From Candidatus Heimdallarchaeota archaeon (GTDB lineage: Archaea > Asgardarchaeota > Heimdallarchaeia > Heimdallarchaeales > Heimdallarchaeaceae): 64,000 nucleotides of DNA. How positions within the stretch are numbered: position 1 is the stretch's first letter; the number at the start of each line of letters is the position of its first letter. The notes beneath the pieces are model-generated. The model searched no databases and was not told where the DNA came from. It saw only the letters and a program-made list of their open reading frames with translations. Location: positions 64,001-128,000 of the forward strand of contig JABCTC010000002.1 in NCBI GenBank assembly GCA_018238545.1. Direction: 5' to 3'. The position numbers and the translations under genes are program-made. Shown one piece after another: positions 43,489 to 46,046 of this stretch.

Positions 43489-44679
43489 TTACTTAGCTGA
43501 CATAATTTCTTTTAGATTCTCTAATAGAATTCTTATCTCTTCTTTGGAATTATATAAGTGTGTAGAAATCCTGACTAAGTCATTATACTTCTGTTCATAC
43601 ATAAACAGATGGGAACATAGGGCACCGCTTCTGGAAGTGATATTATTCGTATCTTCTAAAATCATCGCTACATCATGAGCTTCGAATTTGTCACTTCCAA
43701 ATGAAATGATAGGACCATATTCTGCTCCATCAACTTCCATTAAGGTTATGTTCGGAATGTTTTGTAGTTCCTTCCTAAGTAACAAATTAAGTTGTTTTTC
43801 ATGAGTTTGAATTTTCTCTAAACCTATATTAGACAAAACTTTCAAACTGTTGGATAAAGCTACTATCCCAGCAACATTGATAATACCTGGTTCAAATTTT
43901 GCATCAGATCTTTCTAAAACGTAAAGGTATTCTTCTAAAGCTATAATAGAACCCCCACCAACGAGCAAAGGATCCATGCGTTTATACATCTCAGGATTGG
44001 TGATATGAAAGGCGGTACCTTGTGGACCTAGAGCACCTATACAACCAGATGATATAACTAAATCTGGTAAATTCGCAGAGAAATCAATAATTTCATGTCC
44101 TATAGTTTGGCTTATATCCAAGAATAATAAAGCCCCCAAATCTTTGCACAATTTACTTATTCCTACCCAGTCTCTCTTTACACCATTTGTGACTGCTAAT
44201 GAGGAAAGCAAGACAATATCTCCTTCTCTTTCAATTTTCTCTTGTATAGATTGAAAGAGATTAGTTTCTTCCTCAATTGTTAAATAATTGATTTTAGTGC
44301 CAAATGTATTATGAACTCTTATCGCAGGAGCAAGTATGGAATGTTCTTCCAACATGCTTGAAATTATCTTTCTCTCTTTCATTTTATCTAAAGAAAATAA
44401 AGCATTTGTCAGAGCGATTTCTCTGGTAGGAAAGAAGGAAACGTTTGATTCAGAAGAATTGAAAAAGTTCCTAATCTCATTTCGGGATACTTCAATTACC
44501 TTGGGAGCTGCAGAAGCTTCTTGACTCATGCTTCGAACAGCTGCTCCATTTACCTCTTTATAGTATGAAATCATCTTGTTCAAAGAAGTGACAGGCATCT
44601 TTCCCATTGTTGCAGAATCGAGGTAAATTTTACCCTCAGGTATTGTAAACTCTTCACCAAACCTTGTGATATGTGACAT
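43489..44679 (-). CDS. SufS-like class V aminotransferase-fold protein lacking the PLP lysine (paralog 1)
   Basis: IYLDSAT, DISQ..GH, SSGCIGALGP in place of SGHK..GP, GGG, KFEPG, RSGALCSH, RISTHLYN. Confidence 0.88.
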   Translation of the reverse strand: MSHITRFGEEFTIPEGKIYLDSATMGKMPVTSLNKMISYYKEVNGAAVRSMSQEASAAPKVIEVSRNEIRNFFNSSESNVSFFPTREIALTNALFSLDKMKERKIISSMLEEHSILAPAIRVHNTFGTKINYLTIEEETNLFQSIQEKIEREGDIVLLSSLAVTNGVKRDWVGISKLCKDLGALLFLDISQTIGHEIIDFSANLPDLVISSGCIGALGPQGTAFHITNPEMYKRMDPLLVGGGSIIALEEYLYVLERSDAKFEPGIINVAGIVALSNSLKVLSNIGLEKIQTHEKQLNLLLRKELQNIPNITLMEVDGAEYGPIISFGSDKFEAHDVAMILEDTNNITSRSGALCSHLFMYEQKYNDLVRISTHLYNSKEEIRILLENLKEIMSAK

Positions 44680-44742
44680 TAAAAAGAGGAACTTACTAAC
44701 TATATTAAAAGATTTTGAGAAAATATCTTCAAAAGCATAACA

Positions 44743-44750
44743 TTTGTATA
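44743..44750 (+). promoter_or_regulatory. Possible TATA box for the intergenic small RNA
   Basis: TTTGTATA after an A-rich stretch, about 25 nt upstream of G44768. Confidence 0.35.
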
Positions 44751-44767
44751 GTTAGAGGCATATTCTT

Positions 44768-44836
44768 GCTTAGGAATGATCGAAAGGCATTTGATTTAGC
44801 AAATTTGCTATGAAATCAAGAAGCTAAGTGACCTAA
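44768..44836 (+). ncRNA. Candidate k-turn / box C/D-like small RNA
   Basis: Terminal stem TTAGG/CCTAA, 3-nt bulge AAT, box C-like ATGATCG and box D-like GTGA with compensatory C-G pair; internal hairpin; T-rich tract downstream. Confidence 0.5.
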
Positions 44837-44855
44837 ATTTTAATTTCATTTTTCT

Positions 44856-46046
44856 TTAAATTTCTTCCATTATGTTTTTTATTGTGTCAATAAATGTCTT
44901 TATCTGCTCTTCAGTGTTATAAATATGGGTAGATAATTGTACTAGTGAATTCTGCCCAATTTCTTCCATAAACAGATGTGAACATAAAGCTCCACTTCGA
45001 ACAAAAACATTCTGAATATCTTCTAGGATTATTGCAATATCATGAGAATCAACAGATTCACTTCTGAAAGAGAGAATAGGACCATTTTCAATGCCATCTA
45101 GATTAACTAATTCGATGTTTTGGATGTTCTCCAACCCCTCAACAAGTTGTCTTCTTAGTTTCTTTTCATGATTTTTAATCAATTCTAATCCAATATCATT
45201 GAGAAGTTGTAAACTTTTTGATAACCCTACAACAGCTGCTATATTAATAGTTCCTGTTTCGAATTTATTGTTCCAATTACTGAGTTTGTAATTACTTTTG
45301 CTCAAAGAAATGATGGAACCACCACCAACTAACAATGGTTTCATTTCATCATTAATTTCCTCTGATACAAATTGAAATGCTATACTTTGTGGTCCTAGTG
45401 CACCACTAGTACTTGATGATAGTACAACATCAGGCATGACTCTGCTAAAATCCATGCTCTCATGTCCAACAAGGTAACTCATGTCCATAATAGTTCGAAT
45501 ATTGTTATCTTTACAAAATTTAGAGATACTTTCCCAATTGCGTTTTATACCCATACCTAGAGTTAAAGCTGAAAATAGGAAAATAGATGAATCTTTTGAA
45601 ATTCTTTCTTGAAGCGCGTCTAGAAGACTTTGTTCGTCATTCATCGATAAATAATTAATATTAGATCCAGTAAGTTCCTTGAATTTTATAGCTGGACCAA
45701 TAATTGAATGATCTTCCAAAACACTCATGATTAAGTTGCTCTCTTTATTTGAAGAAATAGAAAATAAAGAGTTAAGTACTGCAGTTTCCCGTGAGGGTAA
45801 GAAAGATAGTTGTTTTGGACTAATTTTGAAAATTTGTGCTATATTTTCTCTTTCTGTTTCTAGAACCTTAGAAGTTTTTATTGCATATTTGTGAGTTCCT
45901 CTATTTACTCCTCCCCCCTCGGAGTTGTAGAAATCACATATTGCCTTCAAGGTTATTTTTGGCATTTTCCCTATGGTTGCAGAATCTAAATAGATTTCAT
46001 CCTTAGGAATATCAAATTCATCTTGGATTCTAGAAGCTAAAGTCAT
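44856..46046 (-). CDS. SufS-like class V aminotransferase-fold protein lacking the PLP lysine (paralog 2)
   Basis: IYLDSAT, NRGTH, SSSTSGALGP in place of SGHK..GP, KFETGT, RSGALCSH, STHIYN. Confidence 0.88.
   Translation of the reverse strand: MTLASRIQDEFDIPKDEIYLDSATIGKMPKITLKAICDFYNSEGGGVNRGTHKYAIKTSKVLETERENIAQIFKISPKQLSFLPSRETAVLNSLFSISSNKESNLIMSVLEDHSIIGPAIKFKELTGSNINYLSMNDEQSLLDALQERISKDSSIFLFSALTLGMGIKRNWESISKFCKDNNIRTIMDMSYLVGHESMDFSRVMPDVVLSSSTSGALGPQSIAFQFVSEEINDEMKPLLVGGGSIISLSKSNYKLSNWNNKFETGTINIAAVVGLSKSLQLLNDIGLELIKNHEKKLRRQLVEGLENIQNIELVNLDGIENGPILSFRSESVDSHDIAIILEDIQNVFVRSGALCSHLFMEEIGQNSLVQLSTHIYNTEEQIKTFIDTIKNIMEEI

Follow-up and report, generated by a model that had tools for sequence, protein, structure and literature searches.

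Cysteine desulfurases are the sulfur entry point for iron-sulfur (Fe-S) clusters, thio-cofactors and tRNA. Copies that lack the Schiff-base lysine (Lys-less) were previously known solely as type I IscS proteins in a few anaerobic archaea, and these changed the view of cluster building from free sulfide. The IscS of Archaeoglobus fulgidus has Asp199 in place of the lysine, binds pyridoxamine 5'-phosphate (PMP), is inactive and provides a Cys ligand to the [2Fe-2S] cluster on IscU (PMC8918507, PMC13066941), and IscS1 of Methanosarcina acetivorans, also without the lysine, has been proposed to act in the same way (PMC7585200). Here, we describe two tandem genes, A and B, in a 64,000-nucleotide stretch (hereafter the window; positions 64,001 to 128,000 of contig JABCTC010000002.1, assembly GCA_018238545.1) of Candidatus Heimdallarchaeota archaeon. 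The host is a metagenome-assembled genome of the Heimdallarchaeaceae (3.63 Mb, 128 contigs, ~92% complete). Both genes encode relatives of the type II cysteine desulfurase SufS in which the lysine is lost and the active-site cysteine is kept. Our comparisons strongly indicate that the two proteins are independent of pyridoxal 5'-phosphate (PLP), and both are under clear purifying selection.

Results

Two full-length type II desulfurase folds in tandem

Both genes lie on the minus strand, B upstream of A, and each encodes a full-length type II cysteine-desulfurase fold.

43489..44679, minus strand: gene A, open reading frame for a 396-residue SufS-like protein without the Schiff-base Lys
44856..46046, minus strand: gene B, open reading frame for a 396-residue SufS-like protein without the Schiff-base Lys

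The frame of gene B is also open from an ATG at 46082, which would give 408 residues. Synteny favours the start at 46046, because this leaves an 85-bp divergent spacer that resembles the 82 bp of five related genomes.

An earlier reading of the window made from the sequence alone (the sequence-only reading) had described a tandem, full-length SufS-like pair, and the open reading frames, the mutual identity of 46% and the Pfam results all agree with it. A and B match PF00266 (Aminotran_5) end to end, covering profile positions 1-371, with E-values of 6e-60 (A) and 1e-59 (B) and scores of 203.6 and 202.4 bits against a gathering cut-off of 21.5. The closest NCBIfam subfamily model for both is SufS (TIGR01979), which scores 193.9 bits for A and 198.6 bits for B, in both cases below its cut-off of 475.1; the IscS and NifS models reach merely 54-65 bits.

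The structure of A was predicted with AlphaFold2 from a family alignment (predicted local distance difference test, pLDDT, 89.9; predicted template modelling score, pTM, 0.91). The closest solved structures to this model are exclusively type II desulfurases, namely Arabidopsis Nfs2, Escherichia coli SufS/CsdB, Bacillus subtilis SufS and the Thermococcus onnurineus enzyme, with template modelling (TM) scores of 0.86-0.89 at 21-26% identity. Furthermore, A and B have the type II architecture of a short Cys loop and a beta-hairpin, and the loop region aligns without gaps.

Loss of the cofactor site and retention of the cysteine loop

Residues are numbered below according to the E. coli K-12 sufS gene, in which K226, C364, H123/H124, D200, Q203, R56, R359, N175, T95 and T278 were confirmed. 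The roles of K226, H123, R56, R359 and C364 in SufS have been described (PMC11507941). Four segments of A and B define the change.

44023..44049, minus strand: lysine-site loop of A, S211-GCIGALG-P219, in place of S-G-H-K-x-x-G-P
45390..45416, minus strand: lysine-site loop of B, S211-STSGALG-P219, in place of S-G-H-K-x-x-G-P
43609..43632, minus strand: Cys loop of A, R350-S-G-A-L-C355-S-H357, retaining E. coli R359, G361 and C364
44976..44999, minus strand: Cys loop of B, R350-S-G-A-L-C355-S-H357, the same as in A

Where canonical enzymes have S-G-H-K, A has S-G-C-I and B has S-S-T-S, each followed by an invariant G-A-L-G-P, so that the Schiff-base Lys (K226) is I214 in A and S214 in B. In A, both the His and the Lys are gone, and the loop is one residue longer than the canonical one. 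The EHHS motif is EEHS in A and EDHS in B, and the segment RSGALCSHLFM is present in both. These are the observations on which the sequence-only reading was built. Its motif coordinates were correct in the alignment to solved SufS-type enzymes and E. coli SufS, as were the two EHHS variants and the identical cysteine loops. Its central claim, loss of the Lys with retention of the Cys, is borne out across the orthologs: a Lys at the K226 position occurs in 0/89 (46 A-type and 43 B-type sequences), and the Cys is kept throughout.

Could a lysine elsewhere in the protein have taken over the catalytic role? We rejected this candidate: there is no relocated catalytic Lys, and the sole clade-specific Lys, K27, swaps with Arg.

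The sequence-only reading had noted the loss of the Lys and of one His. Both losses are correct, but the loss extends far wider: T95, N175, H225 and T278 have gone, S223 has gone in part of the clade, and B has also lost R379.

T95, PLP phosphate contact: Glu in A and B
H123, ring stacking and acid/base: Glu or Asp in A/B
N175, PLP O3' contact: Val or Leu in A/B
Q203, PLP O3' contact: variable in A/B
H225 and K226, phosphate contact and Schiff base: lost in A/B, with H225 replaced by Cys or Thr
T278, reaching the phosphate from the other subunit: Ile in A
H363, a conserved position of the canonical proteins: Leu in A/B
R379, fold-type I alpha-carboxylate Arg: Gln in B

We then compared the positions that are 80-100% conserved in 116 canonical sequences with the same positions in 45 Lys-less sequences. 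Those conserved in the canonical set and not in the Lys-less set are T95, N99, H123 (lost in the family of A and B, f1), N175, Q203, S223, H225, K226, T278, H363 and R379. Those kept by canonical and Lys-less proteins alike are D28, R56, D200, E275, G277, the His-Asp pair 345/346, R359, G361, C364 and S381, and within the Lys-less clade C364 is present in 100% and R359 in 98%. S223 is only partly lost, as it is retained in the family of A and B and is Asp in sister families. Of the PLP set T95, H123, N175, D200, Q203, S223, H225 and T278, this family retains D200 and S223 only. That the phosphate, O3' and stacking contacts have all been replaced is a strong indication that A and B are independent of PLP.

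Purifying selection on both genes

A word-based search returned 98 homologs, of which ~90 are full length, and none of these has the Lys. Two diagnostic positions split the orthologs cleanly into 46 A-type and 43 B-type sequences. The ratio of nonsynonymous to synonymous substitution rates (dN/dS, omega) was calculated by the Nei-Gojobori method between close orthologs with unsaturated dS (0.12-0.47). It was 0.13-0.28 for A and 0.12-0.22 for B, compared with 0.05-0.12 for the canonical SufS of the same genomes. Thus, A and B are under clear purifying selection that is roughly twice as relaxed as that on the working SufS. The earlier suggestion of selection rather than decay is upheld by these ratios, by the intact frames and by residues that are invariant across the clade.

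An older Lys-less clade and a late duplication

Among 82 genomes of the class, nearly every one that belongs to the genus of A and B carries the B-then-A tandem, with a spacer of ~150-220 bp. In a sister genus, an A-like and a B-like gene are each present once, at different loci. Single copies occur in three more genera of the family (39-42% identity) and in three further families of the order (28-33% identity). Every one of these relatives is Lys-less and has the RSGxxC loop.

In an exhaustive profile search of 1.8 billion representatives, ~30 further Lys-less proteins were found among the best 150; the named members come from Promethearchaeota (the Asgard phylum), Ca. Ranarchaeia, Odinarchaeota and Heimdallarchaeota. 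In a FastTree phylogeny of 160 sequences, whose alignment included the columns of the trait itself, a single branch with 99% local support divides the Lys-bearing from the Lys-less proteins. The A/B duplication falls within the family clade, after the single-copy genera had branched off. We also surveyed a sample of 250 genomes of the phylum, fetching the best hits per family. This sample yielded Lys-less proteins in f8 (Odin type), f9, f11 (large), f28 and part of f5, often alongside a canonical SufS. In twelve other families, the fetched hits were canonical. All searches taken together place the clade in Heimdall families f1-f5 and in f8, f9, f11 and f28.

By this phylogeny, the A/B pair is a late, genus-level duplication inside an older Lys-less clade that is single-copy in most lineages. 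The tandem layout is conserved in nearly all genomes of the genus, but the pair is not a unique invention.

Reciprocal differences between A and B

The two subtypes differ at fixed positions of the pocket (46 A-type and 43 B-type sequences, E. coli numbering).

Position 175: variable in A-type; L in 43/43 B-type
Position 176: T in 46/46 A-type; G in 43/43 B-type
Position 177: N in 44/46 A-type; M, I or L in B-type
Position 225: C in 37/46 A-type; S, N, T or Y in B-type
Position 278, contributed to the partner pocket: I/L in 46/46 A-type; T, Q or S in most B-type
Position 376: D in 44/46 A-type; S in 42/43 B-type
Position 379: R in 46/46 A-type; Q in 43/43 B-type

The outgroups have Gln at position 379. 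Arg379 of A is thus a reversal that was then fixed.

In fold-type I dimers, each pocket is completed by the partner subunit. It follows that an A:B dimer would have one polar pocket, made of A residues and the polar residue 278 of B, and one hydrophobic, degenerate pocket. Homodimers of A or of B, on the other hand, would be mismatched at their pockets. These reciprocal differences fit an A:B heterodimer and lend it indirect but specific support. Such a heterodimer would be a derived trait of this genus, not of the whole family. Of the PLP-independent heterodimer proposed in the sequence-only reading, the first part is strongly indicated and the second gains indirect support, but the basic function of the family requires no heterodimer.

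Remodelling around the former cofactor site and the cysteine

What replaced the lost contacts? In families f1-f4, the former phosphate site has become acidic: T95 is Asp or Glu (Glu in A and B), and S223 is Asp in f2-f4. Acidic residues at this site would repel the phosphate of PLP or PMP. Wherever the site is acidic, position 181 has become Arg: 33 sequences show both features, 12 show neither and 0 are mixed, a pairing that rests on very few evolutionary events. We read the acidic residue and Arg181 as a salt bridge filling the empty cofactor site, for which E87-R169 is the candidate pair. Of the 45 Lys-less sequences, 34 carry an Arg or Lys at just one of the positions 203 and 379, and none does so at both.

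Two histidines have been gained close to the retained Cys, one in C355-S-H357 and the other at H374 (positions 366 and 383). The His at 366, two residues past the Cys, is found in 33/45 Lys-less compared with 13/116 canonical sequences, and both His together in 31/45 compared with 0/116. The change of R379 to Gln together with the new His at 383 marks 42/45 members of the Lys-less clade. The His-Asp pair 345/346 is kept; His342 of B. subtilis SufS, which belongs to the His-Asp pair contacting the SufU zinc, is discussed in a review (PMC13066941). The gained histidines, the paired substitutions, R359 and the His-Asp pair together would say that selection acts on the Cys loop and on the partner-facing entrance, not on cofactor chemistry.

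Sulfur and Fe-S genes elsewhere in the genome

A canonical SufS was looked for elsewhere in the genome, and one was found on contig C102 (L090), 26-27% identical to A and B. No Suf genes, and neither SufE nor SufU, lie in its neighbourhood. Two genes separate it from GlmS, one for a UPF0147 protein and one that is GlmU-like. No hit to SufE was obtained in the genome (~92% complete), and one SufB-type scaffold is present.

The sole IscU/NifU_N-type scaffold (L005:2674-3171) lies 32 kb from the pair, directly after an IscS-like gene (L005:1450-2661; contig C48, ~12 kb past the end of the window). This IscS-like protein has Arg at the Lys position, and among solved structures it comes closest to the inactive A. 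fulgidus IscS2 (E = 7e-86), with SSDR in the former aligned to SSND in the latter. By these assignments, the genome holds a Lys-less type I relative and Lys-less type II relatives of the desulfurases together with one canonical SufS.

Genomic neighbourhood and spacer elements

Two elements were identified in the spacer between A and B, and two genes follow divergently beyond B.

44774..44833, plus strand: conserved 60-nt block in the A-B spacer, starting GAAUGAUCG and ending GUGACC
44701..44710, minus strand: TATA-like TTTTAATATA, 22-31 nt upstream of the ATG of A
46132-46587, plus strand: 151-residue helical protein, the divergent neighbour of B
46621-47136, plus strand: ARPC4-like protein (PF05856, E = 1e-8)

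In an alignment of 11 spacers from genomes of the genus, the 60-nt block is better conserved than the flanking coding sequence. Two highly conserved stretches of 10-12 nt, AAGGCAUUUG and AAGAAGCUAAG, flank a variable middle. The block has no Rfam match and little consensus folding (-3.15 kcal/mol). It is reminiscent of a C/D-box or k-turn small RNA, albeit one whose boxes are non-canonical, and probably represents an independent gene within the A-B spacer. The TATA-like element, kept as TTTTAAWA at the same place in related spacers, probably gives A its own promoter, and its distance from the ATG suggests a leaderless or short-leader transcript.

A search with Rfam over the locus found nothing but a tRNA at 42824-42894 (minus strand, 67 bits), which underlies the first ~25 codons of a listed 201-residue open reading frame at 42820-43425 (plus strand). 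That frame encodes a TM2-domain and zinc-ribbon protein whose true start is probably a Met further downstream, near MSTKYFCQNCG.

The 151-residue protein has invariant Trp, Arg, Glu and Lys residues. Its sequence lacks a conserved Cys, matches nothing in Pfam or the PDB and has no detectable relatives, and on the first two of these grounds we rejected it as a SufE-like acceptor. No SufE, SufU or CsdE gene is present near A and B in the window. The SufS-like gene or genes, a ~150-residue protein and an ARPC4-like protein were adjacent in 14/14 f1 (Heimdallarchaeaceae) loci examined, with a divergent spacer of 32-119 bp, and this trio persists in genus g5, where other synteny is lost. The ~150-residue and ARPC4-like genes were never seen apart in these loci, and nothing connects them with sulfur. 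The single-copy Lys-less gene of f3/f4 has a Ras-family small GTPase as its neighbour (PF00071, E = 1e-44 to 1e-49), whereas in f11/f28 the neighbours are a small protein with two transmembrane segments and GlmS. An assignment of that small protein to UPF0147 was rejected, because the two are not similar and it is a membrane protein. The adjacency to GlmS in f11/f28 may be a remnant of an ancestral SufS-GlmS neighbourhood or a coincidence.

The locus is also flanked by a LarA-like protein with lactate racemase N- and C-domains (40823-42205, plus strand) and by two radical-SAM proteins (47168-48310, minus strand; 49065-50123, plus strand). These genes belong to a block that is syntenic across the genus, and no link between them and the pair was found.

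Discussion

Could proteins that have given up the cofactor still serve sulfur metabolism through their cysteine? We infer that A and B are without cofactor, associate as a heterodimer and handle sulfur or a cluster. They would be cofactor-less "pseudo-desulfurases" descended from a type II cysteine desulfurase. Because the entire PLP and substrate apparatus has been replaced, A and B would be unable to split cysteine. Selection would maintain them for the parts they retain: the R350-S-G-x-x-C355 loop, the Arg that steers the persulfide, the His-Asp pair at the entrance and the dimer fold. The entrance pair would be the equivalent of B. subtilis SufS His342 and would serve in partner docking. 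In this genus, an A:B heterodimer would have one ligand-competent pocket, built from A residues and the polar residue of B, and one degenerate pocket, and it would handle sulfur or an Fe-S or metal centre non-catalytically. Either C355 would accept a persulfide and pass it on, or C355 would serve as a ligand together with the gained H357 and H374. A parallel would be the Lys-less A. fulgidus IscS, which lends its Cys to the IscU cluster.

The reading we prefer, that of a non-catalytic Cys-loop protein acting as a persulfide relay or as a donor of metal or Fe-S ligands, with an asymmetric A:B dimer in this genus, has in our estimate somewhat less than an even chance of being correct. We are more doubtful of a stronger version, in which PLP-independent handlers of sulfur or metal would be found Asgard-wide, the pocket would have been rebuilt around C355, H357 and H374 as a persulfide, metal or Fe-S site, and the asymmetric A:B heterodimer with one working site would be obligate in the Heimdallarchaeaceae. 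Several observations weigh against the preferred reading. The Lys-less clade is mostly single-copy, and so its basic function needs no heterodimer. In none of the lineages examined do the conserved neighbours include a gene for sulfur, Fe-S or thio-cofactor metabolism, and the only IscU of the genome adjoins another Lys-less protein, the IscS-like one. The co-occurrences reported above stem from few evolutionary events among related sequences. Finally, 98% of the Lys-less proteins retain D200, the residue that contacts the ring nitrogen of PLP, leaving some room for a ring-shaped ligand.

This last point is the starting point of another explanation, in which A and B are enzymes or ligand binders that reuse the old pocket for non-covalent PMP or PLP, for another anionic or ring ligand or for a metal, held by D200, H124, the single pocket Arg (203 or 379) and C355. 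The rule of exactly one Arg or Lys at these two positions and the regained and fixed Arg of A at the carboxylate-binding position 379 would agree with it, and a Lys-less IscS with bound PMP is documented (PMC8918507). All contacts to the phosphate (T95, H225, T278 and, in sister families, S223) and both to O3' (N175, Q203) have, however, been replaced, two of them now by acidic residues, and this family has Asp or Glu in place of the stacking H123. Residues at the former His and Lys positions show no constraint, as in an unused site, and B and genus g3 are without any pocket Arg, all of which makes this explanation improbable to us. The conserved cysteine loop could instead be kept for structure or redox sensing in a scaffold or adaptor unrelated to sulfur and tied to the 151-residue and ARPC4-like neighbours, the trio being adjacent in every f1 locus even where other synteny is lost. 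Yet the neighbours differ in f3/f4, f11, f28, f8 and f9, so that this link is family-specific while the conserved core of the protein is phylum-wide, and the most strictly kept residues, R359-x-G-x-x-C364, are those of persulfide chemistry; we hold such a scaffold to be very unlikely.

A and B might also be regulatory or structural partners of the canonical SufS, one or both forming with it a hybrid dimer with a single site and tuning its activity or its choice of partner. The active sites of fold-type I enzymes span the dimer interface, and inactive paralogue subunits tune other members of this fold type, such as the Lys-less alpha subunit of the two-chain glycine decarboxylase. The canonical SufS accompanies the Lys-less genes in almost all genomes of genus g1 and the Lys-less type in families f8 and f11, and it is an orphan without an adjacent SufE or SufU. 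It is, however, just 26-27% identical to A and B and encoded on a separate contig, the reciprocal complementarity links A with B rather than with SufS, and its omega of 0.05-0.12 gives no sign of adaptation to a new partner. We therefore give a hybrid dimer a low probability. That A and B are decaying pseudogenes or functionless relics has practically no chance of being right: the catalytic residues are lost and amino-acid divergence is 2-3 times faster than in the canonical SufS, but the selection and conservation data refute this view, with full-length, intact frames in ~90 orthologs, omega of 0.12-0.28, a clade with invariant residues that persists across several Asgard lineages and a confident fold prediction.

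The Lys-less SufS-like family represents a second, independent Lys-less lineage, arising from a type II enzyme, with a cofactor site that has been stripped far more thoroughly. Its conservation under selection in several Asgard lineages, and its presence in one genome next to both a functional SufS and a Lys-less IscS, suggest a recurrent use of non-catalytic desulfurase scaffolds in archaeal sulfur and Fe-S metabolism. Furthermore, the family offers a clean natural case of an enzyme that became a pseudoenzyme and was then duplicated into an apparent asymmetric heterodimer. Eukaryotes have no closer relatives than the Asgard archaea, which gives the handling of sulfur and Fe-S clusters in these archaea a broader interest; no link was found between the Lys-less SufS-like family and any eukaryotic protein.

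Comparison with known systems

The sequence-only reading knew of no description of such a pair. Full-text literature searches, outside which most subscription journals fall, yielded no Lys-less SufS and no Asgard desulfurase-like pseudoenzyme; a 2026 review is silent on them, and a protein atlas returned generic class V clusters only. For type II enzymes these searches agree with the statement, but Lys-less type I IscS paralogues are documented (PMC8918507, PMC7585200).

The two-chain glycine decarboxylase GcvPA/GcvPB is a fold-type I heterodimer with one Lys-less subunit (alpha). Like A and B, its subunits are encoded by tandem paralogous fold-type I genes, and its dimer is pseudo-symmetric with unequal pockets. 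In GcvPA/GcvPB, however, one subunit retains PLP and catalysis, whereas both A and B are without the Lys.

Canonical SufS/CsdA enzymes (6mr6 from E. coli, 5xt5 from B. subtilis, 5b7s from T. onnurineus and Nfs2 from Arabidopsis, 4q75) have the same full-length fold (TM score 0.86-0.89) and share with A and B the short Cys loop, R359, C364, R56, D200 and the His-Asp pair 345/346. On the other hand, A and B are only 21-26% identical to them, are without K226, H225, N175, T95, T278, H123 (in this family) and R379 (in B), score below the cut-off of the SufS model and have no adjacent SufE or SufU gene.

The IscS of A. fulgidus (PDB 4hvk, 4eb5) and IscS1 of M. acetivorans are, like A and B, archaeal class V proteins in which the Lys is replaced and the active-site Cys is kept. 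They are, however, of type I, with a long SSGSAC loop, whereas A and B are of type II, with the short RSGxxC loop and a beta-hairpin. In the A. fulgidus IscS type, the PLP site is otherwise preserved and the gene adjoins that of IscU, whereas A and B have lost nearly all cofactor contacts and are without an adjacent scaffold gene in the lineages examined. Unlike A. fulgidus IscS and M. acetivorans IscS1, A and B have been duplicated into two fixed subtypes. Because A and B belong neither with catalytic SufS nor with A. fulgidus IscS, we would file them as the type II, cofactor-less counterpart of the inactive IscS paralogues.

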